DNA of 24,000 bases, taken from Methanolobus psychrophilus R15 (lineage in GTDB: Archaea > Halobacteriota > Methanosarcinia > Methanosarcinales > Methanosarcinaceae). Below are positions 1 through 22,765 of this stretch, in pieces. A program made the position numbers and the translations under genes. Under the pieces are notes generated by a model. That model saw only the letters and a list, made by a program, of their open reading frames with translations. It made no database searches and was not told the DNA's origin. The stretch spans positions 2,258,042 through 2,282,041 of the forward strand of contig CP003083.1 in assembly GCA_000306725.1 (NCBI GenBank). Direction: 5' to 3'. Positions within the stretch are counted from its first letter, which is position 1. Each line of letters starts with the position of its first letter.

Positions 1-826
1 TCTGAAGCTGCGCGGGGTCGGCATGTCTCAGTCCAGGTATCTGTTCACATTGCATAACGGGATGTTCACAAGTTTTGAGCCATTCCGGGTTTCCTATCCT
101 GAGAATACTATAATACCATCTCCTGTGCCGGATTCTGCCCGTAGTAAGATTTCAACGGGTAGCCCTGACTTTGATGAAATACTGGGTGGCGGGTATCAAA
201 AAGGGAGCTTCAACCTGTTCGAGATCACAAGCGGTGTCGGTGATTCATTTTACAGCATCCTGTTGCCGACATTCATAAATCATCTCAATATGGGCAGGGC
301 CATGCTCAGCATCCCGACAGAAGGTACCAGTGTCGAGACTGAAAAGAGGATGATCTCTCCTTTCACAAATGAGGATAATTTCCCCAGGCAGTTCAAGGGT
401 TTTGAGATACGTGACCAGAAGGGCCGCATCCCTCCATATGTCGAAGCGTTCTCCGGCAACGTCTATAAGGACATGGAAATATTCTATCAGTCAAAACACG
501 AGATGATGCGCCAGTACGGCTCCCCGCTGCTTGACTATATCGGGCTTGACAGTATGGAGTACAGTTACGGCTGGGAGAACATAGGCGCTGTAATAGGACA
601 GATAGCCTCTGTTACAAAGACTACGGAGAATGTCGTGGTTGCTGTTGCAAAGCACGGTCAGAAGATCACTGATTCTGTTGCGCATATGGCCACTACTCAC
701 TGGAAGTTTGAGAACGTTGATAAGACTCTTGTTATGTATGGCATTGTTCCAAAGACCGGGATGTATGTGGCTCAACTCGAATTTGGCTCCGGATATCCAC
801 AGGTCAGATTAGTTCCTATCAAATAA
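1..826 (+). CDS. KaiC/RecA-superfamily signalling protein, 3' part (5' end outside window); the domain in view has a degenerate P-loop
   Basis: The frame is open from nt 2 (LKLRGVG precedes the first Met at 23), so the gene starts left of the window. This reads like the end of a preceding KaiC-type domain. ISTGSPDFDEILGGGYQKGS is the canonical KaiC/RadA domain opening. The Walker A position (GxxGxGK[ST]) reads ITSGVGDS (nt 224-247), i.e. Lys->Asp. Stop at 824-826. Confidence 0.6.
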   Translation, partial: LKLRGVGMSQSRYLFTLHNGMFTSFEPFRVSYPENTIIPSPVPDSARSKISTGSPDFDEILGGGYQKGSFNLFEITSGVGDSFYSILLPTFINHLNMGRAMLSIPTEGTSVETEKRMISPFTNEDNFPRQFKGFEIRDQKGRIPPYVEAFSGNVYKDMEIFYQSKHEMMRQYGSPLLDYIGLDSMEYSYGWENIGAVIGQIASVTKTTENVVVAVAKHGQKITDSVAHMATTHWKFENVDKTLVMYGIVPKTGMYVAQLEFGSGYPQVRLVPIK

Positions 827-847
827 TCTCCAATCTTGTATTTTTCT

Positions 848-889
848 TAATATATCCCAAACATTAATATGAATATAGGACTAATATTT
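848..889 (+). promoter_or_regulatory. AT-rich putative promoter with three TAATAT hexamers at exact 17-nt spacing
   Basis: TAATAT occurs at 848-853, 865-870 and 882-887. The last, extended to TAATATTT (882-889), is centred ~26 nt before ATG 912. That is the usual archaeal TATA-to-TSS distance. Confidence 0.3.
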
Positions 890-911
890 ACAAAACAAGT
901 TTCAAAGGTAA

Positions 912-1976
912 ATGATAATGGATGATCAGACTCAGGAAATTCTGGCAACTCTAAGGGACGGGCTATCAGACAAAAGTTCATTGTTCTTTGCTCAGGTTGA
1001 CAGTTTTGTCGAACGCCTGGTCTATCTTCATATCTACGATGTGCTCCGCAATGACGCTGACAGAAATGTTGTGTGGCTATGCCTGAATTCCCCGCGTGAT
1101 AAGATCCTCGGGAAATTCGGGGACTTCGGCTTTAATATAAGCGGTTCAATGGACCGTTTGTTCTTCATTGATATCGAAGTGCCGGGCAAGTCTCCCCAGC
1201 AAGGGACCTTTTACTGCAGTTCTCCGGCAGATTACACCAAAATGGCATCCCATATCTCTAACCTTTTTGAAAGGAACATGCCTGCCCTGCTGGTGATGGA
1301 TAACATGAATGTGCTGGCCACAGACACAATGCAGGTTGTCGAGACATTCATGCAGTTTGTCGAAAAGAAAGTGCACGAGAAAGAAGGGGGCATTGTTTCA
1401 GTACTTTTGAAGGATATACTCTCCCCTGAAAATGAAATGCTTGTAAAGTCCTTTTTTGATGTTGTTCTGGATGTCACCAACATAGGTGAAGTACATGCTC
1501 AGATTGGTCTCAGGGACTTTGATTTCAGGTACTTTGTGGAGGACGGATATATAAGATTGGAGTACGCCCCAAAGAAAATCAAAAGGGACAAATTGAAGGT
1601 CCTTATAGTGGACGATGAGCCAGATATCCCGGAGCTCTTGAAGCTATCCCTCATCAGCGAACCTTATGACTTCCTGGTAGCATACAATGGTGAGGAAGCG
1701 ATCGATATCGCCTTGAAGGAACATCCCGACCTGATATTACTTGATATCATGATGCCTGACATGGACGGATATGAAGTTGTAGGGCAGCTCAAGAAAAGCA
1801 AAACTGCAAATGATATACCGGTAATAATGATCTCCGCAAAGACTGCGATAGAAGATAAGGTAAAAGGCATGGAGCTTGGCATTGATGACTACATTGCCAA
1901 ACCTTTTGATAAAAGGGAAGTGAAGGCCAGGATTAAAATGGTCATGAGGCGGCTTGGCTGGTCTATAGAGGAATAA
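912..1976 (+). CDS. Hybrid response regulator: P-loop-less KaiC/RecA-like N-terminal domain (tentative) plus C-terminal receiver (REC) domain
   Basis: 354-aa ORF. The C-terminal ~120 aa is an intact REC domain: VDDEPD acidic pocket, LLDIMMPDMDG phospho-acceptor Asp, MISAKT and IAKPF Lys. The N-terminal ~225 aa has the size of a KaiC-like domain. It has no glycine-rich P-loop; the expected region reads SSLFFAQVDSFVERL. The N-domain call is by eye only. Confidence 0.75.
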   Translation: MIMDDQTQEILATLRDGLSDKSSLFFAQVDSFVERLVYLHIYDVLRNDADRNVVWLCLNSPRDKILGKFGDFGFNISGSMDRLFFIDIEVPGKSPQQGTFYCSSPADYTKMASHISNLFERNMPALLVMDNMNVLATDTMQVVETFMQFVEKKVHEKEGGIVSVLLKDILSPENEMLVKSFFDVVLDVTNIGEVHAQIGLRDFDFRYFVEDGYIRLEYAPKKIKRDKLKVLIVDDEPDIPELLKLSLISEPYDFLVAYNGEEAIDIALKEHPDLILLDIMMPDMDGYEVVGQLKKSKTANDIPVIMISAKTAIEDKVKGMELGIDDYIAKPFDKREVKARIKMVMRRLGWSIEE

Positions 1977-2035
1977 TTATATATTACAATAATATATTGT
2001 CTACGTATATATTATTTCCTTTGCAGGAGTATAAG

Positions 2036-2410
2036 ATGCATCCAAAAATCATGGTCGTAGACGACGAGCCAGATACAATAGATCTTGTGAAGATCATCCT
2101 TGAGTCCGAGAATATACAGGTTATCGGCGCCAGCAGTGGTTTTGAATGCCTTGAACTGATGGAGCTGGAGAAGCCGGATCTCATTTTACTTGATATCATG
2201 ATGCCCGATATGAATGGATGGGAAACCTTCCATAAGATCAAGGAAAAAAACCCTGCTCTTCCTGTTGCAATGCTTACTGTAAAGAGTCAGGAATTCGATA
2301 AGATGCTTGGCCTTCATGTGCTCAAGGCAGATGACTACATCACAAAACCGTTCAGCAGGAAAGAACTGATAAAAAGGACCATGGACCTGTTAGGAACAAA
2401 GGCCGAGTGA
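2036..2410 (+). CDS. Stand-alone CheY-like response regulator receiver protein
   Basis: The ORF track starts at 1997. AGGAG at 2025-2029 sits 6 nt before ATG 2036, giving MHPKIMVVDDEPD, the normal receiver N-terminus. The DD pocket, LLDIMMPDMNG, MLTVKS and ITKPF are all present. There is no output domain. Confidence 0.85.
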   Translation: MHPKIMVVDDEPDTIDLVKIILESENIQVIGASSGFECLELMELEKPDLILLDIMMPDMNGWETFHKIKEKNPALPVAMLTVKSQEFDKMLGLHVLKADDYITKPFSRKELIKRTMDLLGTKAE

Positions 2411-2411
2411 G

Positions 2412-3470
2412 TCACAGGATCTCACAAAGGATGGCCTTTCTGTCTTTAAGGAACAGGTGAGCTTTCCGGTCCCCGCTTAAGTTGTCTTCTAACCGGTTGC
2501 GTATATCCCAGTACTCTTTGGGCTCCACTGCAGCTCTTAATATAACTGTTCCAAAACCGTTCTTCTTCAGGAAACCATTGATGTGTGCGGTGTCAAAATC
2601 CTGAACGCTTAACACCTTATATTTGTTCTTCAGCATTGGATGATTTACAGGTACTTCAGAAGTAAGGAAAAGACGCTTCCTGTCAATCAAAAACAAGCAG
2701 ATATCGGGAGCCTGCCTTTCCAGGTCATGCGCAAGTTGCGAGAGAAGCCCGGCCCTTTCCACTGACTCTTCCGGCTCATAAGCATAATAGGCAAGTTTCT
2801 CAGATGGCTCCAGGTCCTGCGCGTCTAAGGTGGACTCGATGCGTGCACGGGATGGCAGGGCTACTGCTGAGGTATCACATCTCATGAGGCTGCCAAAATA
2901 AAGGTTAAGCCTGTTTATTTTCCCGTCAAGGGACAAATACTCCTTCTCGCATTCAAAGGGTATCCTGTCGGGGGTGAGCTGTGGAGGCGCCTCAAAAGCA
3001 AAGTCAGATGCTTTGGAACTGTATGAAGCTATTACTTCAGGTATTGCAGGCCGAAGGTTTCCTATGTCGCGCAGATTCTCACTCGCAGGTCTTGCAGGAT
3101 CTGAAAATACAATGTCAAGTTCCGGCAGTTGCCTGATAACCTCGGGTGACAGCGCATCCCCGCAAATGAATTCAACGTTATCGATCCCAAGAAGCTTGCA
3201 GTTCTTTTTTGCATAGGATATCTTCTTCGCATCGATCTCCACTGCATAGACCATATCGCACTCACTTGCGAAATAGATCGTCTGCCCGCCAACTCCGCAG
3301 CTGATATCTGCAATAGTGCTGCATTTAAGTCGTGCAGCCCTGTATCTCGCGACATCTTCAGGTGTTGCGAATCTCACTCCGTCCTTGTCAGAAACGATAT
3401 TATGTCCAAATCTCTTTTTGCGTGGCAATCTTATCCCGGAAAAAAGGGGTCTCAAATGATTTAAAGTCAT
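2412..3470 (-). CDS. Class I SAM-dependent methyltransferase, possibly RNA/cap-guanine-N2-type with a C-terminal extension
   Basis: 352-aa ORF. SAM-binding motif I is IADISCGVGGQTIYFA. An acidic residue ends beta-2 (VYAVEID). Motif IV-like element is VFSDPARP. The subfamily is uncertain. Its stop codon lies 1 nt from the stop of the convergent receiver gene. Confidence 0.7.
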   Translation of the reverse strand: MTLNHLRPLFSGIRLPRKKRFGHNIVSDKDGVRFATPEDVARYRAARLKCSTIADISCGVGGQTIYFASECDMVYAVEIDAKKISYAKKNCKLLGIDNVEFICGDALSPEVIRQLPELDIVFSDPARPASENLRDIGNLRPAIPEVIASYSSKASDFAFEAPPQLTPDRIPFECEKEYLSLDGKINRLNLYFGSLMRCDTSAVALPSRARIESTLDAQDLEPSEKLAYYAYEPEESVERAGLLSQLAHDLERQAPDICLFLIDRKRLFLTSEVPVNHPMLKNKYKVLSVQDFDTAHINGFLKKNGFGTVILRAAVEPKEYWDIRNRLEDNLSGDRKAHLFLKDRKAILCEIL

Positions 3471-3525: not shown

Positions 3526-3550
3526 TATTCAATATTTTTATATAATATCG
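3526..3550. promoter_or_regulatory. Shared divergent promoter region (TATA-like TTTTTATATAATAT) between the methyltransferase gene and flaD
   Basis: This is the only strongly AT-rich box in the 81-nt divergent gap 3471-3551. TCAATAT (3529-3535) is followed by TTTTATATAAT. It lies ~60 nt upstream of ATG 3606 and ~65 nt from the minus-strand ATG at 3470. Confidence 0.4.
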
Positions 3551-3605
3551 CATGTATATTGAAGTATCTATAGATGTCTTATCAGCTAGTGTTATAAGTG
3601 AAACC

Positions 3606-4922
3606 ATGTCCGGCTTGAGCGATGCTTTAAAAAAGGTGACAACAGGCATTCTGGGTAAAAAGGGTGCAAATAAAGGCAGTAGCTCGCCTTTTGGTTCAGG
3701 CAATCCTCCGTTTTCCTCTGGTGTTCCCGATCTTAATTCGCTTCCTGACCTGGCTTCCGCTTTCCCTCCGGGGTCCCCGCCTGGTTTTCCGGGCACAAAG
3801 CCCTCTTTTCCTCCGGGAATGGGCTCGGCTACCGGCATGCCGTCATCTCCTCCAGGAATGATGCCTCCGGGCATGGGTGCTCCCGGAGCTGCACAAGCTG
3901 CCAATGCTGAGCATAAAGAAGCCATAGAAGTACATGGCAAGAAGATCAAGGACGTTGAAACGAAGCTCTCAAAGGCCGATGTAACGCTGAGCATGGTGCA
4001 GCGTGATAATGAGGAGATTAAGAAAACCGTTGACAAGATCGACCAGAGCGTGCTTGAACTGTTGTCACTTTATGAGATCGTTTCCAATCAGGTCAATCCT
4101 TTCGTGGGCGATGATATCGGATCCCGTGCTACTATAGAGAGGTTCGAGAAAACAGAGAAAAGGATCACTGAACTTGCGGACCTGCTTGTTATCTTTAAGA
4201 ACGACATGGATACTGTCATTCATAAGCTGAACATGCCCGGCATTTCCAAAGAGGTTGGTTCAAAGATGCAGGACATCGAATCCAAGCTGAATGCATTTGC
4301 CGATGCAATGTCCATGATGCATGAGAGCTTGGAGCAATTAACCTCCCGGACAGAGGAACTCACCGGCAAGACCGAAACCATCGATCAGAACATACTCGAA
4401 CTGGCGGAATCTACAAGCAACATCTCCTCCAGGGTGGATGAGCTGGAAAGGAAAAGCGCTCTCCAGTCTCTGAACGATGCAAAAGAAGAAATGGAAAATG
4501 CTTCAGACGAAAGGTCGGATAACAGGGGACAGGATAATTCCCGTACAGGGCAAAAGAAAGGCCTTCCCCTTGTACGCCTGGAGAACCTGAGGACCGATCC
4601 TACCAGTGTTGTAGTCCTGCTCAACTGGATAGAATTCCTGATGGAGCGTGTCGGCAGGAACAACCTGATGGATGCGCTGGACTATTATGTGGACATCGGA
4701 TGGATAAGTGAGGATGTCCGGTCAGAAGTCATGGCATATGCCCGTGGCATCGACTACTATGTGGAAAAACCTACATGGCGCCTGCTTCCTGAAGATCATA
4801 CCAAATCACTGCTGTTTATAGAAAGGCTCTGCGGGCGTAAGATCGACCGTAACATGCTAAGCTCCATAGATAGGGAGATGTCAAAGGTTAAACACGGGCT
4901 GGAGGAACTCTATGGGATTTGA
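3606..4922 (+). CDS. flaD: Archaellum protein FlaD/FlaE family (ArlD/E) with FlaC-like coiled coil and an N-terminal Pro/Gly-rich linker
   Basis: The C-terminal ~115 aa (LVRLENLRTDPTSVVVLLNWIEFLMERVGRNNLMDALDYYVDIGWISEDVRSEVMAYARGID) is the FlaD/E signature region. The middle ~200 aa is E/K/L-rich and heptad-like. The gene lies directly upstream of flaF-J. I prefer ATG 3606 (MSGLSDALKK) as the start, because ATG 3552 sits only a few nt after the TATA-like box at 3535-3548. The longest ORF is 3552-4922. Confidence 0.85.
   Translation: MSGLSDALKKVTTGILGKKGANKGSSSPFGSGNPPFSSGVPDLNSLPDLASAFPPGSPPGFPGTKPSFPPGMGSATGMPSSPPGMMPPGMGAPGAAQAANAEHKEAIEVHGKKIKDVETKLSKADVTLSMVQRDNEEIKKTVDKIDQSVLELLSLYEIVSNQVNPFVGDDIGSRATIERFEKTEKRITELADLLVIFKNDMDTVIHKLNMPGISKEVGSKMQDIESKLNAFADAMSMMHESLEQLTSRTEELTGKTETIDQNILELAESTSNISSRVDELERKSALQSLNDAKEEMENASDERSDNRGQDNSRTGQKKGLPLVRLENLRTDPTSVVVLLNWIEFLMERVGRNNLMDALDYYVDIGWISEDVRSEVMAYARGIDYYVEKPTWRLLPEDHTKSLLFIERLCGRKIDRNMLSSIDREMSKVKHGLEELYGI
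3678..3908 (+). other. Low-complexity Pro/Gly/Ser-rich segment inside flaD, with imperfect CCTCCGGG(A/C)ATGGG (PPGMG) repeats
   Basis: It translates as SSSPFGSGNPPFSSGVPDLNSLPDLASAFPPGSPPGFPGTKPSFPPGMGSATGMPSSPPGMMPPGMGAPGAAQAANA. It also generates the spurious 189-aa antisense ORF 3467-4036. Confidence 0.8.
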
Positions 4923-5343
4923 GGTTACGGTGGTCGTAGCTATATTTTTTGTTTCGGCTCTTGTGGTTGGAACCTTTTCCTACACCGCATTGAGTGCATC
5001 TTCTGATATTGTAAACGATGCATCAGAAGATCAGCACCAACTCCAGAGCAAGCGGCTGCAGACATCTATTAACATTGACCACTCTGTCCCCGGAGCTTCG
5101 GGAAGCACTTATGATCTGACAGTAACGCTTACAAACACAGGCAGTGAAACACTCCATTTCGATGAGCTGAATGTCCTTATCGACGGGTACATAGAACCTT
5201 ACACTTTTAATGAATCTGCTGCTGTCTGGGTTCCTGCAGAGACACGCAGCCTGACTGTGCCAGATCTTATGGGTGAAGGGACACACCGTATTAAAGTCGT
5301 GACTGAGAACGGCCTGTCAGCATATGATACTTATTTTGTGTAA
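4912..5343 (+). CDS. flaF: Archaellum protein FlaF (ArlF)
   Basis: 143 aa. It has the MGF start with an N-terminal hydrophobic helix (MGFEVTVVVAIFFVSALVVG) and a beta-rich remainder. It overlaps the flaD stop by 11 nt. Position is between flaD and flaG. Confidence 0.8.
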   Translation: MGFEVTVVVAIFFVSALVVGTFSYTALSASSDIVNDASEDQHQLQSKRLQTSINIDHSVPGASGSTYDLTVTLTNTGSETLHFDELNVLIDGYIEPYTFNESAAVWVPAETRSLTVPDLMGEGTHRIKVVTENGLSAYDTYFV

Positions 5344-5344
5344 G

Positions 5345-5422
5345 CCAGACGGTGTCATATTTATATAGTATTGTCAATATATTATAATCTCGATTATATT
5401 CTTGAATTCACGACCAGACGGT
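5345..5422 (+). repeat. Exact 9-nt direct repeat CCAGACGGT (5345-5353 and 5414-5422) bracketing a 60-nt AT-rich spacer between flaF and flaG
   Basis: Read directly from the sequence. The first copy starts 2 nt after the flaF stop. The second ends 8 nt before the flaG ATG. The spacer contains the TATA-like ATTTATATAG and TCAATATATTATAAT. Confidence 0.6.
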
Positions 5423-5430
5423 AAGAAAGC

Positions 5431-5937
5431 ATGAAAAACAACAACTTTCTCACAATGGGAACCTTTTCCAAGTGCCAAAAGGCAGAGACTGCCATAACGC
5501 ACATGATCTTTTTCATTGTGGCCATCATTCTGGCTATGGGAGTCATCACAGTCCTTTCTGCTGATGTGCAGTCTATCGTCTCATCTTCCTCTGTGAACAG
5601 CAAACTGATAGCACAACAGATGAGGACCGATATAACAATAGTGAACGATCCCTTGATGGTGCCCTATGACATTCCAGGCAACAGCTATACTTTTTATGCA
5701 AAGAACACAGGCAGGACCGAGTTAACACCAGAGTTTATAACAGTGCTTGTAGACGGAATTATGGTTGCACCTTCAAATATGGAACTTGAACTTCTCGATG
5801 GTGATGTGGTGTGGAGGCCCGGTGATGTTCTTGTGTTACGTGTGATCCCAAGCCCCAGCCCCCTTGATCCCGGGGACCATCGCATCCTTGTCGTCGCAGA
5901 TAACGGGAAGTCCGGCAGCATGAGCTTCAAAACATAA
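5431..5937 (+). CDS. flaG: Archaellum protein FlaG (ArlG)
   Basis: 168 aa. The N-terminal archaellin-like hydrophobic helix is ETAITHMIFFIVAIILAMGVITVL, followed by a beta-rich domain. Position is between flaF and flaH. An alternative start is Met9 at nt 5455. Confidence 0.75.
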   Translation: MKNNNFLTMGTFSKCQKAETAITHMIFFIVAIILAMGVITVLSADVQSIVSSSSVNSKLIAQQMRTDITIVNDPLMVPYDIPGNSYTFYAKNTGRTELTPEFITVLVDGIMVAPSNMELELLDGDVVWRPGDVLVLRVIPSPSPLDPGDHRILVVADNGKSGSMSFKT

Positions 5938-5947
5938 CGGAGAAAAA

Positions 5948-6643
5948 ATGGTAAAGATATGTTCATTCGACATTCCCAGGGACGAGCTCAATGGGAAACT
6001 GGGCGGCGGTTTTCCTGTAGGCTCACTTGTAGTGATAGAAGGTGGGAGCGGCGGTGGCAAGAGTTCCATCTCACAACGCCTTTCATTTGGGCTTAATGAG
6101 AATAAAGTAAGTGTTACACTCATATCCACTCAGATGACAACAAAGGGTTTCATCAACCAGATGTACTCAATGGACTATCCCATAGCCGCTTACCTGCTGA
6201 ATGGTTCTCTTCTGTACATCCCGGTAATTCCGCTCGTCCAGGCAGCAAAGTCGAGGTTCGATTTCCTTGAGAGACTGATGGCTGCAGAAGAGCTATTCGA
6301 AAAAGATGTTGTTATAATTGACACGATCTCTTCGCTCATAAAATACAGTGCAAATACGGAAAAGAGCCTTGATCTCATCTCTTTTTTCAAGAAGCTCAAT
6401 GGAATGGGGAAGGTGATAATCCTCACTATAGAGCCCAACCAGCTTGATGAGGACATAGCTTCAATGTTCAGATCATCCTGCGATGTTTACATCACTCTTA
6501 AATCGAGACCCCTTGGAAGCGAGGTCAAGCGTACTATTGTTGTGAACAAGTTCACGGGGGCAAAAGGCCCGGTGGGCCAGATGATAGGTTTCAGGATAGA
6601 ACCAAGGGTTGGCCTGGTAGTGGAGATAGCGTCCGTATCATGA
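5948..6643 (+). CDS. flaH: Archaellum KaiC-like ATP-binding protein FlaH (ArlH)
   Basis: 231 aa. KaiC-like opening is LNGKLGGGFPVGSLVVIEG. Walker A GGSGGGKS is intact (nt 6041-6064). A Walker B-like element is VVIIDT. GGAG Shine-Dalgarno (SD) motif lies upstream. Position is before flaI. Confidence 0.88.
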   Translation: MVKICSFDIPRDELNGKLGGGFPVGSLVVIEGGSGGGKSSISQRLSFGLNENKVSVTLISTQMTTKGFINQMYSMDYPIAAYLLNGSLLYIPVIPLVQAAKSRFDFLERLMAAEELFEKDVVIIDTISSLIKYSANTEKSLDLISFFKKLNGMGKVIILTIEPNQLDEDIASMFRSSCDVYITLKSRPLGSEVKRTIVVNKFTGAKGPVGQMIGFRIEPRVGLVVEIASVS

Positions 6644-6663
6644 GGTCCGTGGAAGGTGATTGA

Positions 6664-8325
6664 ATGGATCTGGAGTTTGAGAAAGCCATACAGAGAAATC
6701 CGCATCTGGGTGAATATGTACGGAAGTTCATGCGGGAGAACGGTGCTGATGAACCTGTTTTCATGGTAAAGCTTTCCAAGGACCTAAATAAGGAAAATGT
6801 AAATCTCATCCTGCCTGTGGGGGATCCTGTCTTCATTCACCTCTATGGCACTTCCGAACTGGGAGAGGTTCGCTACTACAGCATAGAGCCATTGTTGAAC
6901 GACCTGGAGAAACAAAAGTACGATATCATCCTGAGCATCATCCTTGAAAAGTCGGCTAACGAATCCCTGCCTGATTCCGAGAGCGAGTTAAAGGAACTAA
7001 TAATAAGGCTCCTTGACGAATCTGTTGATATCGGTGCCGGAGGGAGCATCGAAGCTGATGATAAGAAAGGCAAGTTCGATATATTGAGCAAACTAATACC
7101 TGTGCAGAAAAAAGTTCCTTTAACCCAGAATGAATACAACAAGCTGCTCTACCATATAGAAAGGAACATTATCGGTTCCGGTCCCATAGAACCTGTTATC
7201 AGGGACCCGTATCTTGAAGATATCAGCAGCATTGGCGTGAACAATGTGTTCATTGTCCACAAGATATTCGATACAATTAAAACAGACCTGACCTTCGGGG
7301 ATGAGAAAGGTCTTGACAACTGGCTCAGGAGCATGAGTGAGCGTATCGGCCGCCCTGTAAGCGATGCCCGCCCTATTGCAGATGGTGCACTGCCCGACGG
7401 GTCACGTATCAACATCATCTACAGTATAGATATCAGTAGACGTGGTAGTAGTTTCACGATGCGTAAGTTCAGTGAGGTCCCTGTCAGCATCATCCAGCTC
7501 ATCAACTGGGGTGCATTAAGTGCTGAAGCGGCTGCCTATATGTGGATGTGTCTTGAGAACGGTATGAGTGTCTTTTTCAGTGGGGAAACTGCCAGTGGAA
7601 AGACTACAATGCTTAATGCCTGCCTTGCGTTCGTCAATCCCAGGGCAAAGGTATTCAGTGCCGAGGATACGGCTGAAGTCCAGCCTCCCCAGCCAGTATG
7701 GCAGCAGCTGATCACGCGTGAGGAAGGTCCTGTGGATTCCAGGGTGGATACGTTCACTCTGCTCAAGGCTGCTTTGCGTTCCAGGCCGAATTATATAATC
7801 GTAGGTGAGATCCGTGGAGCCGAAGGTAACGTGGCTTTCCAAGGCATGCAGACCGGGCACCCCGTCCTGGCAACCTTCCACGCATCTGCTGTCACTAAGA
7901 TGATACAGCGCCTGACAGCTGATCCTATCAATGTCCCTGTGACCTTCATCGATAACCTTAATGTGGCAATGATATTATCCGCCGTCTATCGTAAGGGGAA
8001 ATTCCTTCGCCGATGTCTTGCCGTAGAGGAAATAGAGGGATACTATGAAGAAGTAGGTGGAGTGGTCACCAGGGCAGTGTTCCAGTGGGACCCCGAAACC
8101 GATAAGCATAGCTTCAGGGGCCTGAACAACAGTTACATCCTTGAGAACAAGATAGCCACTAAACTGGGTTATGAGGATAAGAGGCAGATATACCAGGACC
8201 TTTTCCTCAGGGCAAGGATACTGGAAGAGATGCGTTCACGGGGTATAGAGGACTACTATGATGTACTTGATATCATAGTGAAGTTCTATAAGCATGGCGT
8301 CGATGGCCTGCCTTTCAGCGTGTAG
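6664..8325 (+). CDS. flaI: Archaellum motor ATPase FlaI (ArlI), type II/IV secretion ATPase family
   Basis: 553 aa. Walker A is GETASGKTT. Walker B/Asp-box region is NYIIVGEIRG. His-box is LATFHA. GGTGAT SD at 6655-6660 lies 3 nt before the ATG. Confidence 0.93.
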   Translation: MDLEFEKAIQRNPHLGEYVRKFMRENGADEPVFMVKLSKDLNKENVNLILPVGDPVFIHLYGTSELGEVRYYSIEPLLNDLEKQKYDIILSIILEKSANESLPDSESELKELIIRLLDESVDIGAGGSIEADDKKGKFDILSKLIPVQKKVPLTQNEYNKLLYHIERNIIGSGPIEPVIRDPYLEDISSIGVNNVFIVHKIFDTIKTDLTFGDEKGLDNWLRSMSERIGRPVSDARPIADGALPDGSRINIIYSIDISRRGSSFTMRKFSEVPVSIIQLINWGALSAEAAAYMWMCLENGMSVFFSGETASGKTTMLNACLAFVNPRAKVFSAEDTAEVQPPQPVWQQLITREEGPVDSRVDTFTLLKAALRSRPNYIIVGEIRGAEGNVAFQGMQTGHPVLATFHASAVTKMIQRLTADPINVPVTFIDNLNVAMILSAVYRKGKFLRRCLAVEEIEGYYEEVGGVVTRAVFQWDPETDKHSFRGLNNSYILENKIATKLGYEDKRQIYQDLFLRARILEEMRSRGIEDYYDVLDIIVKFYKHGVDGLPFSV

Positions 8326-8334
8326 GTGAGCTTC

Positions 8335-9990
8335 ATGAGTTATGAGAAGGCTTTCAAGAACCTTGGCATGGAACCTCTGGTTTACGCAAAGAAATTTGCC
8401 TTGCCTATTGTTCTGTTTGGAATTGTGTTCGCCGTTCTCATGTACACGTTGCTTCCTAATCTCTTCGTAGGTCCTGCAAAATACATACCCATACTGGTAA
8501 CTTTTGCATGCGTTTTTTTCGCCTTTTCATATCCTCTTTCCATTCTTGCTGCAAAGGCCACGCGTATAGATAACAATATGCACTACTACATCACTCAGAT
8601 GGGTTCCATAGCAACCGCGGAAACTCCCCGTCTCGACATCATCCGTATCGTTTCGGAGAATGACGACTACCGTGAACTTGCGACGGAAACACGGAAAATA
8701 TATGATCTAGTGACCGTGTGGCACATGAGCCTGGCTGATGCCTGCAGGTTCATATCCAAACGTACTCCTTCTATCATCTTTGAAGACTTCCTCGACAGGT
8801 TCGCCCATGCACTCCAGTCAGGGGAGGATGTGAAAAGTTTTCTTTTTGCCGAACAGAACGTGGTCATGAACGAATATGAGTCCATGTACAATGGAGCCCT
8901 CTACGCTGTCGAGATAGTAAAGGAAATGTTCGTTTCCCTGGTCATGTCCCTTATCTTCCTGGCCTCTTTTGCAGTCATCATGCCTGTAATTACCGGTATG
9001 AACGCGGAATTGCTGATGTCTATTGTTGTTGTGGTCTTCCTTGTGACCGACCTTGTCATGGTTATGTTCACCAGGAGCAAAGTTCCTCAGGATCCGGCAT
9101 GGAACAGGTCTAATGCATTGACCAAGGATAAGCTCAGACTGTATCGTTCCATTCCCATCTCGATCGGCGGCTGTATAATTGTAGGTATGGCAGTTCTCAT
9201 GTATGGTAAGATCGAGACCCCTATCGCCGTTGCAATGTTCCTTACTCCTCTGGTTTATACGGGGCATGTTGCACGTAAGATCGAAAAGGGCATCCGTCGG
9301 AAAGATGAGAACTTTCCTGCTTTTATCCGCTCCCTTGGCAGCTCTGCAGGTGCCAGGGGAGGCCTGATCGATGATGCATTGAAAGCTCTGCGGTCTCACG
9401 ATTTTGGCCCTCTTACAACAGATGTCAATAATCTTTATAAGCTGCTGGCGACAAGGATTGATAAATTTGCTTCATGGGACCATTTCGCTGCAAACATCGG
9501 GAGTAATCTCATCCAGAGGTTCTCTGTAATGTTTGTCGAGGCAACTAACCTTGGGGGCCAGCCAGATGTTATAGGTGACATCATAGCAACAAATTTCCAC
9601 AGGATTGTCAACCTGAGGAAAAAAAGGACCCAATCCGCAAACAGCCTTGTGGGTGTCCTCTATGGACTTACGGGAGGAATTGGTTTTACCATGTACATTT
9701 CCCTCGGTGTCGTAGGACTGATGCAGGATATGTTCGCAACCGTGGAGATGCCTGCCGGTATGTCCATAGGTATGGTGCTGTACACTAATGTCGGGAACAT
9801 TACCACTCTTGAGAACATGGTACTTGGAATAATGATTGGCCATTCCCTGATGTCTGCCATTCTCATAAGGATAGTTGACGGAGGCCACATGCTCAGCTCA
9901 ACCATCGACTTTGTTATCATGGTGTGGATATCAGGAGTAAGTGCAATCGTGACAATGGCAGCAGTGTCCTCGCTTCTTGGGATGACTTGA
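8335..9990 (+). CDS. flaJ: Archaellum polytopic membrane platform protein FlaJ (ArlJ)
   Basis: About 550 aa with many hydrophobic helices. It lies immediately after flaI. GGTGA at 8325-8329 sits 5 nt before ATG 8335. The ORF track's 8326 start is a GTG that overlaps the SD. Confidence 0.88.
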   Translation: MSYEKAFKNLGMEPLVYAKKFALPIVLFGIVFAVLMYTLLPNLFVGPAKYIPILVTFACVFFAFSYPLSILAAKATRIDNNMHYYITQMGSIATAETPRLDIIRIVSENDDYRELATETRKIYDLVTVWHMSLADACRFISKRTPSIIFEDFLDRFAHALQSGEDVKSFLFAEQNVVMNEYESMYNGALYAVEIVKEMFVSLVMSLIFLASFAVIMPVITGMNAELLMSIVVVVFLVTDLVMVMFTRSKVPQDPAWNRSNALTKDKLRLYRSIPISIGGCIIVGMAVLMYGKIETPIAVAMFLTPLVYTGHVARKIEKGIRRKDENFPAFIRSLGSSAGARGGLIDDALKALRSHDFGPLTTDVNNLYKLLATRIDKFASWDHFAANIGSNLIQRFSVMFVEATNLGGQPDVIGDIIATNFHRIVNLRKKRTQSANSLVGVLYGLTGGIGFTMYISLGVVGLMQDMFATVEMPAGMSIGMVLYTNVGNITTLENMVLGIMIGHSLMSAILIRIVDGGHMLSSTIDFVIMVWISGVSAIVTMAAVSSLLGMT

Positions 9991-12593: not shown

Positions 12594-15104
12594 TCAGACC
12601 TCTATCACATTTCCATCCAGTACTGCGCGCTCACTGACACTTACCTGCTGGGTAACGTTCCCGTGACTTATCGTGTAAGCACCTGTGGGCCTTACGGCGA
12701 ACTGGGTCTCTCCCGGGATTGGTCCCTCTGTTGAATAGGGCACCGTGAAGGAGTACGTGCCATCAGATGTGGCAGACTGGGAGTAGGTGAATGACCTACC
12801 CTGGTTTGTCTGAATGGTGTTGCTGATGGTCACGGTCTCACCTGCTGGTGCCGTACCTGTAATGGTTGCGCCTTCGACATACTCGAATGTCTTGACGTAA
12901 CCTGAATCTGTCAGGGGCAGGTTGCCTCCAAAGAGCACGTTATACACGTTCTTGTATCCCGTCTCGCTGGTGTATCCTGCTGGTGCTGCAGGAGACTCAT
13001 GCACAAGGCGATATTGTTGCAGGCCGCTGCCATCAAAGATATGCAGCCTCGCTTCCATTGAGTCGTAGTACCTCTGTCCGGGCACATACTGGGAACCGCT
13101 GTCAGTCTGAACTGAGACATAGTAACCCTCCGTGTCCAGTGTCCAGGCCGTCATTGCATAGAACTTACCTGTTGCCATCTCCACATCGGAGATGATGTAG
13201 CGTGATGCAACTTTGTCCGGGTCCGGATGGATCGCATTAAGGACCGCCGTTGCTTCCTCTTCAGAAGGTGCTGTGAAGAATGGCGCAGCTCCCGGCCTGT
13301 TCTCTTCATCGATACTTACAGAGCGCCCTCCAATACCTGCCTGGAAGGGATTGGCATTTGGCAGCCGCCGCGCAATGGTCTCTATCTCATGCCCATAATC
13401 CCACCAAGACATCACTCCATATGCCGTGTCAGGATAATCAAAGCGTTCTCCACTTTCAGGTGCTTCGTATATCTTAAGGAAATCCATGCCCGGGTCTGGT
13501 GTGTTGGCTTCCATCCAGAAGAGCGAGTCAAGCCAGTAGCCATTCATTCCGCTGGCATACTTTGACTGCTCCATGGCAAGGCTGTAACTGGGATAGGCTA
13601 CGAGCAACAACAGCATGAATATGGTAATTAAATGGGCTACCTTTATGTTCTTGCTCAAGAAGCCGGGAATCTCACCCATGGATTTTACTTTGTCATGGTA
13701 GGCAGCTTCAATCTTTTTCCATCCGACAAGGTCAAGGACCTTTGCTGCGAAGTATCCTGAGAGTAATGCGACGTTGATTGCATAATAGTATGCAAAACGG
13801 TTCTGCCCATATATGGCAAGGAGCAGTATGAAGGTCCAGACAAGGACGAGCAGCTCTTCAGGTCTTTTTTCCTTCCTGACACTGTAGGCCAGCATGAACA
13901 CAGCGATTATTGAAATGAAGAAGCCCATGGCGAAGTTGTACCAGACAGAGCTGAGGGTGAACGCACCTCCGCGGTAGAAGATGGAGGAGACCTCACCGAT
14001 GGTGGAATGGCCGCCAGTCTTCACTGAAAATATAAAATCTCCGATGCCTGCTATCGAATTAAATATTGACGGAGAGGCTATTCTTATTGCCAGAAGCCCC
14101 ACCACTATTGTTGCGATAAGTGCCAAGGGGTAGTAAAAAGGCTTCATTCCCTTATCGATGAGTACTTTATAAACAATACTCATATACACGAAAGCAAAAA
14201 TCGCGGCAAATGCTGTTGCGACATGGAACCATGAATAATGCAGTGCATTGAAGCCTATTTCCCAGTTCACAAAAGGAAGGACAGGCAATAGTCCTACTAC
14301 AAACGTAATAATTCCTACAATTTCTAGATATTCAGTCGGTTTTTTGTTAAAGTAATCTACACTATACTGCACTGCTGCAAACACGACAATGATCATGCCG
14401 AACATGGGAGCGCCCGGCCATGTAAGCTGGTAGGCTGCATACATAAATCCTGCCAGAATTGCATATATTACTGGTCTGGTGGATTCTTTGTTCCTGTCCT
14501 GCAACATCTTTAAGGAAAGGTTCCTCTTTTTTGCCTCGATGAGTGCAAGCATGAAGAACAGCATCAATAATGTACTGAACAGGATTTCTCCCACATGATG
14601 GTCAGTGAAGATGATTGTTGAACGGTTAAGGAATTGTCCGGGAGCTATGGCTAGAAGAAAGGCTGCCAAAGCACCTGTTTTCCTATCCTTCAAATGTTTG
14701 CCTATATAGTACACAGGAATCACTGTAAGAGAACCCAGAACGGCAGGGAAATAAGCTCCAATTGTATTTACAAGACCTGTATCTGGATTCCCAAACCCTA
14801 TAAACAGCGCTGTCAATGCGATCATGTGATCGAAAAGGGGGCCGAAGTGGATGTAAGAACCATTAGGGAAATTTGTTAAAGGGTTGTATAACACTCCGTG
14901 AGGATAGTTATGTAAGAGCACTTCAACCATGCGCATGTGGTATAGGGGATCATTGCTGAATCTTACAAAACCGTTTGGCAGGAATACACTATCTGCAGGA
15001 CGTATGCGAATGATGAATGCAATTATTGCTGAAACTATGACTGCCAATAAGCATGGCCAGCAAGTTTTGTCTTTTATGGAGCCTGTTATTTTATCAAATA
15101 CCAT
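12594..15104 (-). CDS. aglB: Archaeal oligosaccharyltransferase AglB (STT3 family)
   Basis: 836 aa. The N-terminal half is polytopic membrane. The WWDYG catalytic motif (MSWWDYGH) is encoded at nt 13392-13406. The C-terminal domain is soluble and beta-rich. Confidence 0.92.
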   Translation of the reverse strand: MVFDKITGSIKDKTCWPCLLAVIVSAIIAFIIRIRPADSVFLPNGFVRFSNDPLYHMRMVEVLLHNYPHGVLYNPLTNFPNGSYIHFGPLFDHMIALTALFIGFGNPDTGLVNTIGAYFPAVLGSLTVIPVYYIGKHLKDRKTGALAAFLLAIAPGQFLNRSTIIFTDHHVGEILFSTLLMLFFMLALIEAKKRNLSLKMLQDRNKESTRPVIYAILAGFMYAAYQLTWPGAPMFGMIIVVFAAVQYSVDYFNKKPTEYLEIVGIITFVVGLLPVLPFVNWEIGFNALHYSWFHVATAFAAIFAFVYMSIVYKVLIDKGMKPFYYPLALIATIVVGLLAIRIASPSIFNSIAGIGDFIFSVKTGGHSTIGEVSSIFYRGGAFTLSSVWYNFAMGFFISIIAVFMLAYSVRKEKRPEELLVLVWTFILLLAIYGQNRFAYYYAINVALLSGYFAAKVLDLVGWKKIEAAYHDKVKSMGEIPGFLSKNIKVAHLITIFMLLLLVAYPSYSLAMEQSKYASGMNGYWLDSLFWMEANTPDPGMDFLKIYEAPESGERFDYPDTAYGVMSWWDYGHEIETIARRLPNANPFQAGIGGRSVSIDEENRPGAAPFFTAPSEEEATAVLNAIHPDPDKVASRYIISDVEMATGKFYAMTAWTLDTEGYYVSVQTDSGSQYVPGQRYYDSMEARLHIFDGSGLQQYRLVHESPAAPAGYTSETGYKNVYNVLFGGNLPLTDSGYVKTFEYVEGATITGTAPAGETVTISNTIQTNQGRSFTYSQSATSDGTYSFTVPYSTEGPIPGETQFAVRPTGAYTISHGNVTQQVSVSERAVLDGNVIEV

Positions 15105-15127
15105 ATGCTAACATCTCTTCTTTTTTA

Positions 15128-16267
15128 TTATTGTTCCTCTTTCTGGTGTAGAGTATATCTTGCATCTTCAATCGCTTCCCAAGAACCTGCAGTTGGTATT
15201 ATGAATGAGAAATTCATAACGAGTTGTGTTGTCACAAACGAAATCAATAGATTCCCTATTTTAGGTATTGCGATTAATATCAATAATCCTATATATAACG
15301 GTTCTTCGAGTATAACAAAGGGATATAGAACTGTTATGCCCAAAATGACGACGGGTGAGATAATGTGTGTAAGAAGTGCATATGGATAGATTATTTTACC
15401 AAATTTCCCTTTCCCAAGAAGGTCCAAATTGTCTAGGTACACTCTCCTTAAACCGTTTATTCTTTTCATTTTCTGGACCGTTCGCCCTTTTAGTGTAAGC
15501 GGGACACGCTCGTATACTATGGCGTTCTTATTATAAACCACTCTATAACCCAGATGGATGATCTTGTAGAGCATATCTGAATCATCCGCATAGGCGTTTG
15601 GATTTATCCTTATTTTCTGGAGAAGCCTCGTCCTGAAGCTCATAAGTGGTCCGTTACACACAGAAACAGAATATATGTTGCTCTCACCCTGTCTCCATAG
15701 GTCGAAAACGGACCGATATGAATCCTCATGTGATTTCGATATTCTTGTTCTGTCAGATACGATAACTATCTTTCCTGTAACTCCGCCCACTTTCGGATCA
15801 GCATACTCCCTCACGACCTGCAACAGGGAATCCTCTTTCAATATTGCATCTGCATCAGATATAACTGTTATCTCAGTTGTGATCTTTGAAAAGATCCAGT
15901 TCAAGCCTCTGGCCTTACCTTTGCCACCTTCGTTTTTAATAATGATGGTCTTGAACCCATTTTTGTCTATGGACCCCAACGCGCTCTTTTCTGAACTATC
16001 GGTGGAATAATCATCCACTATTATCACTTCAAGCTTGTCTTGTGGATAATTTAATTTATATGTATTCTCTATCTTTTCTTTGATGACCTTCTCTTCGTTA
16101 TACATTGGTATTATTAACGTGACAGTTGGAAGATTATCAATATCCGGTAATACTGTACTTGACTTGGAATAGATATGCATGATAATAGTGTATGAGGCAA
16201 AAAGAATTATCTCAAATAGAACAAGGACCTGCCAAATAACTAAAGGATCGATTATATTAAGCAACAT
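15128..16267 (-). CDS. Membrane-anchored family-2 glycosyltransferase (GT-A fold)
   Basis: 379 aa. An N-terminal TM helix is followed by PTVTLIIPMYNEE, IIVDDYSTDSS and the VISDADA DxD-type motif. Several TM helices lie at the C-terminus. It sits 23 nt upstream of aglB on the same strand. Confidence 0.85.
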   Translation of the reverse strand: MLLNIIDPLVIWQVLVLFEIILFASYTIIMHIYSKSSTVLPDIDNLPTVTLIIPMYNEEKVIKEKIENTYKLNYPQDKLEVIIVDDYSTDSSEKSALGSIDKNGFKTIIIKNEGGKGKARGLNWIFSKITTEITVISDADAILKEDSLLQVVREYADPKVGGVTGKIVIVSDRTRISKSHEDSYRSVFDLWRQGESNIYSVSVCNGPLMSFRTRLLQKIRINPNAYADDSDMLYKIIHLGYRVVYNKNAIVYERVPLTLKGRTVQKMKRINGLRRVYLDNLDLLGKGKFGKIIYPYALLTHIISPVVILGITVLYPFVILEEPLYIGLLILIAIPKIGNLLISFVTTQLVMNFSFIIPTAGSWEAIEDARYTLHQKEEQ

Positions 16268-16327
16268 TATTTATTACCTTTTATAATTATTCAGTTTTTA
16301 CATTATTTCTTTCAGATAATGGTCCTG

Positions 16328-17803
16328 TCAGTGCATATTCAATTTCCATTTGATTTTCCTAGCAAGATAAGCCAACTTGAATAAAAATTTTGAAAATAAC
16401 TCATTTGCCAACATCTTTGCTTTAATCCTTTGAAGATGGGGGTTTTTGAGATACTTGCCCATGAAAGTCCCCTGTCTTACTGATTCCGGCTTATAGTACA
16501 GGAATTGATAGCCTTTTACACTTTGCCAGTATGCGAACTTGATAGCTCCTGTCCTTTTAGGTCGATTAAGTTCCTGCTCTATCAATCTTATTATGTCATT
16601 GCGGTCTTTCGGTATGTAGCAACCTTCAACATCTTCATATGTCGTTCTGCCGATCAAGATGGATGGTTTACCCCAGAATACACTTTCAATTCCTATTGTT
16701 GAACCAAAGGTAATAATCTTTTCACATGCATCCATCAGTTCATAGGAATCAATTTTAGAATCAGCAGGGATTATAAAGAGGTTTGCTGCTTTCAGTTCAC
16801 TCAACTCTTTTATCTGGGTATTCTTCAAACCTTTAAGATTCGGATGTATCCTCAGATAGAACGTAATATTTTGATTGATTTCTGAATGTATGATCGAATC
16901 GATAGCTTCGGTCTGAGTCCTGTAATAAGGGTTTTCCCATCCTTCTATCGCTTCGAACTCATCTTGGGATGAGATGTAAATAGCAATGTTCCTCTTATGG
17001 GGATTAAAACCCTCAGGCAGGTTTCCTTTGATCTGGGACTTAGTGAATGAATACCAACTCTGGTCTTTTCCGCCTCTGCGTTCTTCAAACCAAGAGATTG
17101 CTATCTTTTCCTTTTTAGCGTCGTCTGGCTCGCTATCCCAACATGTGTCTATCTCTTTTTTCTGATAGTCCAGATTATGAGGATATGTGTTTTCTGTCAA
17201 AGAATATTTATTGAGGACCCCCGCCCTTTCATGCACATAGGTTCTTATTTCCATGTCCTGCGCGGCTCTCAAGGCGGGTCTCAGTGGTACATATCTTCCG
17301 TTGAACAAATAGAATATATCCGGCTTTATAATCTCAAGATGATGCCGGGTCGCGTTATAAATTGCTACTGACATCATCAAGTTCTTTTCCAGAAAGAACC
17401 TGTACTGTGTCACGTCGATTTTAGGTTCTCTCACCATGCTGATAAGGGAAGAAGCGACTGCCATCCCCACATCTATTCCACCTACCTTGAAGCTCTTCAA
17501 TTCTTCCATTGTTGAAAAAACAGGTAAGTTGAGGTCTGTCATAAAATCATTTAAAGCAAGATCATGTCTGTTCTCTTCAGGGAGATGTATGATATTCAAT
17601 CCCCTGTCACTTCTGGATTTGCACAGGATACATCTGAGCTTGAGATGGCTGGGATTAGGTTCACAATATGGTAATTCTCCTGAACATTGGATCACATGGA
17701 CCTCGTCACCTGCATCGATATGTCTGGCAGCGATTTCAAGGTCGGTTGCAAGGTGTGGCACCCAGTCTGCAAAGGGCATATAGATAAGGATCTTCATTTT
17801 CAT
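16328..17803 (-). CDS. Putative GT-B glycosyltransferase resembling capsule KpsS/KpsC-type (CMP-ulosonic-acid-dependent) enzymes; candidate nonulosonic-acid transferase
   Basis: 491 aa. Patterns reminiscent of the Capsule_synth family are FNGRYVPLRPALRAAQDMEIRTYVHERAG, IAIYISSQDEFEA...LRIHPN (an HP motif) and ITFGSTIGIESVFWGKPSILIGRTTYEDVEG. An N-terminal C-x6-C-x10-C-x2-C cluster is encoded at nt 17621-17686. The family call is from memory of motifs and is not verified. Confidence 0.45.
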   Translation of the reverse strand: MKMKILIYMPFADWVPHLATDLEIAARHIDAGDEVHVIQCSGELPYCEPNPSHLKLRCILCKSRSDRGLNIIHLPEENRHDLALNDFMTDLNLPVFSTMEELKSFKVGGIDVGMAVASSLISMVREPKIDVTQYRFFLEKNLMMSVAIYNATRHHLEIIKPDIFYLFNGRYVPLRPALRAAQDMEIRTYVHERAGVLNKYSLTENTYPHNLDYQKKEIDTCWDSEPDDAKKEKIAISWFEERRGGKDQSWYSFTKSQIKGNLPEGFNPHKRNIAIYISSQDEFEAIEGWENPYYRTQTEAIDSIIHSEINQNITFYLRIHPNLKGLKNTQIKELSELKAANLFIIPADSKIDSYELMDACEKIITFGSTIGIESVFWGKPSILIGRTTYEDVEGCYIPKDRNDIIRLIEQELNRPKRTGAIKFAYWQSVKGYQFLYYKPESVRQGTFMGKYLKNPHLQRIKAKMLANELFSKFLFKLAYLARKIKWKLNMH

Positions 17804-18059
17804 CCCATAATATATAATTAATTTGGATTCTTTTGTAATAATTATTGTGTATGTGAGGCCATTGAATGCATATTAACTAGAACACTATTTTTCGTTCAAT
17901 ACTATATATCTGAGTAAATAACCTTCAAATCCTAAACTACTAAGATTTTTTGCTCCTGAATTCTTACTTAAATTACGAGCTGCAAGATGCAGAGACTTTT
18001 TGCGGCCAAGTTTAATGACTTAAAGTGTTCTATACCTTCAATGTCTGTTCCAATTCTAC

Positions 18060-18071
18060 CAGAAAAACTAA
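18060..18071 (-). terminator. Weak oligo-T signal (TAGTTTTTCTGG on the minus strand) just after the methyltransferase stop
   Basis: A T5 run lies 8 nt after the stop codon at 18075-18077. It opens a 271-nt non-coding gap. Confidence 0.2.
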
Positions 18072-18074
18072 GTA

Positions 18075-18998: not shown

Positions 18999-19118
18999 CT
19001 CTTAAGTTCATTTTACAATCAAATGTTTAATAAGTAAATTCTCTGACTAATTGTTTTATAATATTCGAAGCAACAATCGTAATAACAATTGAGACTCCGG
19101 TACTTTTTCTTTTATGTT

Positions 19119-20204: not shown

Positions 20205-20233
20205 TTACTTTAGTAATTTAGTTCCCGTCTTCC

Positions 20234-21818: not shown

Positions 21819-21819
21819 C

Positions 21820-22764: not shown

Positions 22765-22765
22765 C

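Follow-up and report, generated by a model that had tools for sequence, protein, structure and literature searches.

In this study, we analyzed 24,000 nucleotides of the Methanolobus psychrophilus R15 genome (contig CP003083.1, positions 2,258,042 to 2,282,041 of the forward strand; hereafter the window), with emphasis on three genes for KaiC-like and receiver (REC) proteins, designated genes 1, 2 and 3, which lie about 1.1 kb upstream of the accessory operon of the archaellum (arl) and, like it, on the plus strand. First, we found that these genes are most likely a lineage-specific hybrid of bacterial-type two-component and archaeal KaiC-family signalling. Second, comparison with related loci showed that their adjacency to arl is best read as inherited gene order rather than as a link that is operonic or functionally obligate; the archaellum is no more than one candidate target. 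On balance, we consider it probable that the genes form a hybrid signalling set whose position beside arl was inherited. A preliminary description of this DNA had interpreted them as a candidate undescribed motility-control module built of P-loop-dead KaiC-like domains. That interpretation was partly supported: the fold was recovered, the novelty was not, and synteny was equivocal. The closest relatives of the window proteins were found in Methanolobus metagenome-assembled genomes (93-100% identity).

Domain architecture of the three signalling genes

The N-terminal domain of gene 2 (coordinates of all features are shown in Table 1) is an inactivated KaiC-like (iKaiC) domain. As described previously, it lacks a P-loop: the pattern GxxxxGK[ST] was not found in residues 1-225, and the loop after the first strand reads WLCLNSPRDK. 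A Walker-B-like LLVMDNMN and the family motif YCSSxxDYTKM were retained. The AlphaFold model of the protein had a mean predicted local distance difference test (pLDDT) score of 85 (about 90 in the N-terminal domain) and an alternating beta/alpha order, and its best match in a Foldseek search of the PDB was KaiC (E=1e-10, probability 1.0), interleaved with receivers for the C-terminal part. Thus, the confident model and the KaiC matches support the assignment of a KaiC fold to this domain, which the preliminary description had predicted. At the sequence level, the 37 members of the gene-2 family matched Pfam weakly, with matches to KaiC in seven (best E=4e-6), DUF835 in 11 and Elongator Iki1, another inactive RecA-like family, in 13. 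When 1.84 billion cluster representatives were searched by phmmer with the N-terminal domain, only 20 matched at E<=0.001; the handful at E<=1e-24 were all gene-2 family members, full-length or fragments, and the others were stand-alone archaeal proteins of 200-270 amino acids (from Candidatus Methanoperedens, Micrarchaeia and others) that match KaiC, DUF835, DUF7090 and DUF7504. Nothing meaningful was returned by a PDB sequence search with the profile of this domain, and the exact gene-2 sequence had no match in the assembly index.

The C-terminal part of gene 2 is an intact REC domain, again as first described. The residues D234, D235, D278, S308 and K330 were invariant in the 37 homologues, and Foldseek matched the domain to the VicR, MicA and RpaA receivers with root-mean-square deviations of 1.5-1.8 A. 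Gene 3, correctly recognized before as a stand-alone REC, is a complete single-domain receiver (PF00072, 101 bits) with D9/D10, D53, T81 and K104 at the key positions. With 43-47% identity, it is a paralogue of the REC of gene 2. Gene 3 shares its form with the phosphorylated single-domain receiver of the euryarchaeal CheY-CheF-ArlCDE taxis input, but it is more like OmpR/PhoB-type receivers and reached 68 bits against the archaeal CheY model NF041367 (cutoff 200), for which reason we rejected it as a CheY. No che or cheF genes were detected in the window or in the collected loci.

The fusion of an iKaiC domain to REC is said to have been catalogued by Makarova et al. (2017, mBio), as cited by Galperin, Makarova and Koonin in 2018. 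The latter authors included "iKaiC-REC" in their table of archaeal response-regulator outputs (Table 2 of PMC5847659) as specific to six Methanosarcinaceae genera, among them Methanolobus, Methanohalobium and Methanohalophilus, with ABE53050/Q12U26 (Mbur_2185) as the example. All named homologues of gene 2 came from Methanolobus, Methanohalobium, Methanohalophilus or unclassified Methanosarcinaceae, that is, exactly the catalogued genera, and gene 2 is thus a member of this family. It is almost certainly orthologous to the published iKaiC-REC, judging from architecture and taxonomy: domain order, length class and narrow taxonomic range are the same, and no structural difference was apparent. 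The genes were therefore not undescribed, all the more since KaiC genes beside archaellum loci had also been reported (PMC4858521). However, the iKaiC-REC papers catalogue the architecture only, and the alaS/arl neighbourhood, the partners encoded by genes 1 and 3 and a function are not in them. Other combinations of iKaiC and REC are REC-DUF835 and MEDS-REC (PMC5847659), which likewise couple a receiver to an inactivated KaiC-superfamily domain, and DUF835 is weakly matched by the N-terminal domain of gene 2. In these proteins, however, REC comes first, the lineages are Methanomicrobia, Thermoplasmata and Thaumarchaeota, and DUF835 proteins are often membrane-bound. To our knowledge, no iKaiC-REC regulator has been studied experimentally or has a known function.

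The edge of the window cuts gene 1, leaving 516 nt of its 5' end outside. Its missing part was recovered through full-length homologues of 446 amino acids that are 95-100% identical across the window fragment (100% for the copy at L001 10001-11341). The fragment, whose translation contains KISTGSPDFDEILGGGYQKGSFNLFEITSGVGDSFYS, covers the last ~20 residues of a first domain, a linker and an entire degenerate second domain. The latter has a KaiC-type opening (LGGG..GS) followed by ITSGVGDS at the Walker A position. The translation confirmed the replacement of Lys by Asp noted earlier, as did an hhalign alignment in which this motif matched the ArlH Walker A (GGSGGGKS) column for column (motif region, E=1.9e-4). 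Among 19 homologues, the G-V-G of ITSGVGDS was invariant and D-S was at least 90% conserved. The opening matched the KaiC CII start, RadB, RadA and FlaH models of NCBIfam weakly (13-17 bits). On the other hand, the N-terminal domain of full-length homologues carries an intact Walker A, GKPGTGKTT (at least 90% conserved), and a Walker-B-like IVVDSID; by eye, the strand expected to hold the catalytic EE seemingly reads IYISPR. Thus, the label P-loop-dead holds for the second domain and not for the gene-1 protein as a whole.

In Pfam, full-length gene 1 from L001 matched GvpD_P-loop (PF07088) with 69.8 bits (cutoff 24) and KaiC with 37.7 bits, and GvpD_bR2 (PF20440) with 25.8 bits (25.8-27.5 bits overall; cutoff 27.9) over the first ~65 model positions only. 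Homologues are labelled "gas vesicle protein GvpD P-loop domain-containing protein" by NCBI. GvpD is the gas-vesicle repressor of haloarchaea (PF07088 and PF20440), and gene 1 resembles it in having an N-terminal P-loop domain followed by a putative "basic region 2" domain, here degenerate and KaiC-like; it differs in being shorter (446 amino acids) and in its match to PF20440 falling just below the cutoff. No gvp genes or GvpE partner were found in the 20-kb neighbourhoods of 36+ loci. Therefore, we rejected gene 1 as a true GvpD: the architecture is GvpD-like, but gene 1 is not an orthologue. The AlphaFold model of the gene-1 family matched two-domain KaiC over ~480 columns (Foldseek E=9e-14), although the low confidence of the model (pLDDT 57) makes this match supportive only. 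The tandem fold recalls circadian KaiC, in which, by contrast, both domains have a functional Walker A and a catalytic Glu; no KaiB-like neighbour was detected by Pfam, the neighbours being alaS, REC proteins and the methyltransferase. Gene 1 is a GvpD-like two-domain KaiC-family protein with a predicted nucleotide-binding N-terminal domain and a degenerate C-terminal domain. Profile-profile comparisons of the gene-2 N-terminal domain with either domain of gene 1 were not significant with shallow or with deeper alignments, and thus there is no evidence that the former is a gene-1 paralogue; the fold alone is shared.

Two-domain relatives of gene 1 with 24-34% identity were also present in Bathyarchaeota (L034 6600-8006, L035 and L036). 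The 34%-identical relative matched the whole GvpD_bR2 model (51.6 bits). Thus, the GvpD-like architecture is not confined to haloarchaea and methanogens, and no gas-vesicle context accompanies it.

It may be asked whether the degenerate domains are merely decaying ATPase remnants without a current function, given that Walker A has been lost in both and that gene 2 falls into three open reading frames (ORFs) in one Methanohalophilus assembly (L046). We disfavour this explanation and regard it as scarcely credible. Purifying conservation is strong, the degenerate C-terminal domain of gene 1 being better conserved than its active N-terminal domain; 18 positions of the gene-2 N-terminal domain were invariant in the 37 homologues, down to 49% full-length identity; the gene-2 reading frame was unbroken in dozens of genomes; and the gene-2 AlphaFold model is confident. 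With regard to L046 (10001-11066), a read-assembly in which the ORFs have 130, 111 and 118 amino acids, the split marks a pseudogene or else stems from a frameshift in the assembly, and gene 2 is intact in the sibling assemblies L044 and L045.

We also found no specific support for the proposal that the degenerate domains mimic ArlH. ArlH (FlaH) is a KaiC-like partner of the motor ATPase ArlI. It shares with these domains the superfamily fold, and with the C-terminal domain of gene 1 the LGGG..GS opening, but it binds ATP through an intact Walker A (the latter rightly noted in the preliminary description) and is encoded inside arlFGHIJ. The C-terminal domain of gene 1 scored 13.2 bits against the FlaH model PRK06067 (cutoff 194). 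The N-terminal domain of gene 2 had no match to the ArlH/FlaH equivalog models (cutoffs 194-215), and its collinear hhalign alignment with ArlH showed 13% identity (E=0.013). Overall, the similarity of the degenerate domains to ArlH did not exceed that to KaiC, RadA/B or DUF835.

Gene order around the signalling genes

To place the window in context, we used 57 related loci (designated by numbers with the prefix L, such as L001), of which 36 were obtained via the gene-1 family in GTDB genomes, 10 via exact-protein look-ups of divergent gene-2 homologues and 11 via a metagenome scan with the gene-2 N-terminal domain. Each locus was annotated by tblastn searches with the proteins of the window, and the presence or absence of arl was scored within its own neighbourhood. 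The shared order was alaS-(g1)-g2-(g3)-(methyltransferase)-arl-leuB, where g1, g2 and g3 denote genes 1, 2 and 3; MT stands for the methyltransferase below. Methanolobus (class a, about 30 loci) has alaS-g1-g2-g3-MT(-)-arlCDE..J-leuB(-). A sister clade (class b; L027, L029, L031 and part of L026 and L030) has the same order plus a kinase/binding-protein insert and a multihaem cytochrome before arl. Class c (L025) reads alaS-g1-g2-g3-THUMP methyltransferase; the 2.9 kb left after it contain no arl. In Methanohalobium (class d, L037) the order is alaS-g2-IS605 remnants-arlCDE..J-leuB, without g1, g3 and MT. Two further arrangements are alaS-g2-g3-MT-arl (class e, L039, with 37% identity in the g2 N-terminal domain and 64% in alaS) and unrelated genes-g2-g3-MT-cytochrome-arl (class f, L041). 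Class g (L042/L043) reads alaS-g2-MT-cytochrome-leuB-DUF7714-leuD, the arl operon, g1 and g3 having gone from an otherwise intact block. In Methanohalophilus and relatives (class h; L038, L040, L044-46 and L055/56), alaS-g2 is followed by unrelated genes up to 10 kb. Finally, class i (L028 and L033) has alaS-g1 and then unrelated genes, without g2, g3 and arl. Gene 1 without gene 2 thus occurred in L028 and L033, and gene 2 without gene 1 in L037-L046 and L053-56.

The most constant neighbour of gene 2 was alaS, not arl: L041 apart, alaS lay directly upstream of gene 1 or gene 2 wherever a locus included upstream sequence. The arl operon followed downstream at a distance of up to 4 kb in about 30 Methanolobus loci and in L029/L031, L037, L039 and L041, but was absent downstream at L038, L040, L042/43, L044-46 and L055/56. 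Hence adjacency to arl was retained in Methanolobus, the sister clade, Methanohalobium and two deeper metagenomic lineages, whereas gene 2 persisted without a nearby arl in at least two lineages (classes g and h). Moreover, SurE-alaS upstream and leuB downstream were conserved as strongly as the arl adjacency. Since the housekeeping flanks are equally conserved, adjacency to arl by itself says little, and SurE-alaS-...-arl-leuB is an ancestral block of these genera. The expectation that orthologues would be syntenic with arl genes was accordingly borne out at best equivocally, the adjacency being kept in five arrangement classes while the whole alaS...leuB block was conserved to the same degree.

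The local layout also separates the two gene sets. As reported earlier, an oppositely oriented methyltransferase gene stands between them; it is convergent with gene 3 (stops 1 nt apart) and divergent from arlCDE, and because of this convergence genes 1-3 cannot share a transcript with arl. The methyltransferase gene was at the same position in most loci and stays beside gene 2 in L042/L043, where arl is missing; its role is probably unrelated and of a housekeeping nature. AT-rich, TATA-like intergenic stretches precede genes 2 and 3 as well as arlCDE, which suggests that genes 2 and 3 may have promoters of their own. The start of gene 1 is 8 nt past the alaS stop in L001 (alaS, L001 7215-10003), and gene 1 is probably on the alaS transcript. 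Since the most conserved adjacency of the region is alaS-g1 or alaS-g2, co-transcription of gene 1 with this housekeeping gene seems plausible.

This arrangement raises the alternative that gene 1, and ancestrally gene 2, is functionally tied to alaS (for example, by a signal coupled to alaS expression, translation or stress status), with arl being irrelevant. Beyond the 8-nt spacing, it is in line with alaS being the most constant neighbour, with the presence of alaS-g1 or alaS-g2 in nearly all loci, and with the persistence of alaS-g1 where gene 2, gene 3 and arl are absent (L028 and L033). However, lying beside an essential gene is a weak argument where synteny is so high, the putative promoters of genes 2 and 3 speak against a common unit, and no case of an aminoacyl-tRNA synthetase being controlled by a KaiC-like or REC protein is known to us. 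We consider such a link highly unlikely.

A stronger competitor is a dedicated archaellum-control module formed by gene 2 with gene 3 and perhaps gene 1, in which the phosphorylated REC would let the dead KaiC-like domain bind ArlH, ArlI or ArlCDE, as a mimic or partner of ArlH, and thereby tune assembly or rotation, or in which arl transcription would be controlled in a CirA-like manner. Several observations do weigh against our preferred explanation of inherited gene order. The order g2-g3-MT-arl has been kept since the deepest split sampled and is also seen in the highly divergent L039, and arl adjacency spans five arrangement classes with 37-100% identity in the gene-2 N-terminal domain. 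In L041, g2-g3-MT-cytochrome-arl is unbroken despite the upstream rearrangement that left neither alaS nor gene 1 in front of it. Gene 3 was missing from both arl-less classes (g and h) among the sampled loci. In addition, KaiC-family ATPases are often encoded beside loci for archaella and other type IV pili and have been predicted to be regulators (Makarova, Koonin and Albers, 2016, PMC4858521), and CirA, a KaiC-like protein in the arl cluster of Haloferax volcanii, represses motility and arl transcription, its deletion leading to hypermotility and raised arl transcripts (PMC10983859). CirA, which is also a KaiC-family gene beside archaellum genes and separately transcribed, provides the best experimental precedent for a KaiC-like protein controlling motility; yet it is a single domain with functional Walker A/B and no REC, whereas in the Methanolobus genes a dead domain is combined with REC, and their family also occurs away from arl. 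The persistence of g2-g3-MT-arl and the loss pattern of gene 3 are compatible with a true motility tie.

Nevertheless, these points represent few, phylogenetically dependent events, and the opposing evidence is considerable. An intact gene-2 orthologue of 355 amino acids is kept across cultured Methanohalophilus species with no arl gene within 10 kb, and gene 2 is also kept in L042/L043, where arl is missing from the otherwise intact block. Methanosarcina has arl and che operons (PMC11362671) and is not among the six iKaiC-REC genera (PMC5847659). The equally conserved flanks, the separate transcripts and the lack of preferential similarity to ArlH described above point in the same direction. 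Literature on the motility, archaellum and che gene content of Methanolobus and Methanohalophilus provided nothing decisive. Therefore, we regard a dedicated archaellum-control module as a serious but somewhat unlikely possibility, and retain inherited adjacency as the explanation of the gene order.

With respect to the arl-less block itself, the methyltransferase, multihaem cytochrome and leuB genes are contiguous in L042/L043 (11189-14969), and arlCDE-J does not occupy the place it has in related genomes. With this natural deletion, one could look for other features that co-vary with loss of the archaellum.

The archaellum operon and its surroundings

For arlCDE, the ATG at 3606 (MSGLSDALKK...) is favoured as the start, since the N-termini of homologues, which span 0.97 of the ORF from 3552, agree with it. 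Ahead of this gene, at ~3533-3545, is a TATA-like TTTTTATATAA. No archaellin gene (arlA/arlB) was recognized among the scanned window ORFs, in which PF01917 matched ArlF and ArlG only. Past arlJ, the minus strand carries leuB-like, DUF7714 and leuD-like genes, followed by the AglB/glycosyltransferase/NeuB cluster.

Table 1. Features of the window (positions in the 24,000-nucleotide stretch)
Feature	Position	Strand	Remarks
Gene 1 fragment	2-826	+	Open at the 5' edge of the window
Degenerate Walker A ITSGVGDS, second domain of gene 1	224-247	+	Lys to Asp; first Gly lost
Gene 2	912-1976	+	354 amino acids; iKaiC N-terminal domain and REC
Gene 2 N-terminal domain (residues 1-225)	912-1586	+	Inactivated KaiC-like (iKaiC)
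Gene 2 REC (residues 230-342)	1599-1976	+	PF00072, 105 bits
Gene 2 phospho-acceptor Asp278	1743-1745	+	Invariant in 37 homologues
Gene 3	2036-2410	+	124 amino acids; stand-alone REC
Gene 3 phospho-acceptor Asp53	2192-2194	+	Within the stand-alone REC
Class I S-adenosylmethionine (SAM) methyltransferase	2412-3470	-	352 amino acids; Methyltransf_15/31/25 matches
Archaellum accessory operon arlCDE-F-G-H-I-J	3552-9990	+	Pfam and NCBIfam
arlCDE fusion	3552 or, more likely, 3606 to 4922	+	FlaC_arch and Arch_fla_DE
arlF	4912-5343	+	Arch_flagellin PF01917
arlG	5431-5937	+	Arch_flagellin PF01917
arlH	5948-6643	+	KaiC; NCBIfam ArlH 273 bits (cutoff 215); intact GGSGGGKS
arlI	6664-8325	+	T2SSE
arlJ	8326-9990	+	T2SSF
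AglB oligosaccharyltransferase	12594-15104	-	Glycosylation cluster
NeuB-type synthase	19119-20204	-	Glycosylation cluster
Cytidylyltransferase	23344-23871	-	Glycosylation cluster

The cluster adjoining the arl operon (12594-23871, minus strand) is of the N-glycosylation and nonulosonic-acid type; besides the genes in Table 1, it encodes a GT2 glycosyltransferase, a capsule-synthesis-like protein, a methyltransferase, a HAD hydrolase, an ATP-grasp protein, an epimerase and a GNAT protein. A further observation concerns arlI, which in some Methanolobus relatives (L052 15718-19233; also L021, ~17192-18382, and possibly L022) is a single ORF of 1171 amino acids. An in-frame insert of ~596 amino acids comes after "...NVAFQGMQ", opens with Cys (CIRDGYIA...) and is followed by TGHPVLATFHAS. 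It resembles an endonuclease-containing intein within the motor ATPase, with a match to Pfam Intein_splicing at E=1.3e-5 that is under the cutoff. The window ArlI is free of this insert.

Proposed signalling route and its significance

A plausible route starts with a histidine kinase that would phosphorylate Asp278 of gene 2 and Asp53 of gene 3. No kinase was present at this locus in Methanolobus, where it would be encoded elsewhere. In the sister clade, the minus-strand insert between genes 1 and 2 (L029 11353-14119; also L026, L027, L030 and L031) encodes a PhnD-like periplasmic binding protein and a periplasmic-sensing sCache-HAMP-PAS-HisKA-HATPase kinase (L029 11353-13215), and the latter, lying beside gene 2, is a candidate for the cognate kinase of the two receivers. 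Since the output domain of gene 2 has no enzymatic or DNA-binding features, we infer that its output must be a protein-protein interaction. Phosphorylation of REC might alter the docking of the ATP-blind iKaiC domain on a partner, most plausibly a ring-forming KaiC-family protein such as that of gene 1 where present, another KaiC paralogue or ArlH. Gene 3 could serve as a second output or a phosphate sink, and gene 1 could, by analogy with GvpD, set the level of a transcription factor. A version directed at the archaellum can also be envisaged for motile methylotrophic Methanosarcinaceae: a kinase would signal to iKaiC-REC and the small REC, and the iKaiC domain would dock on ArlH/ArlI or on a KaiC-type regulator of arl transcription (gene 1), bypassing CheY-CheF-ArlCDE, with the arl-less copies being retargeted or relict. 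We consider this specific scheme rather doubtful.

The chief value of our results is corrective: the architecture had already been catalogued, the gene-1 protein is not P-loop-dead, and adjacency to arl is no better kept than housekeeping synteny. Thus, the locus is a reasonable experimental lead, but not an undescribed motility module. KaiC-family proteins have been proposed as archaeal signalling hubs, and almost none has a known partner or output. The locus offers a compact test case in this respect, as it combines a receiver-controlled dead KaiC-like domain, a GvpD-like ATPase and a plausible target operon next to them, to which some genomes add a cognate-looking kinase and a binding protein. 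If the archaellum link were true, archaeal motility would for the first time be seen to receive a two-component input other than that of the Che system.

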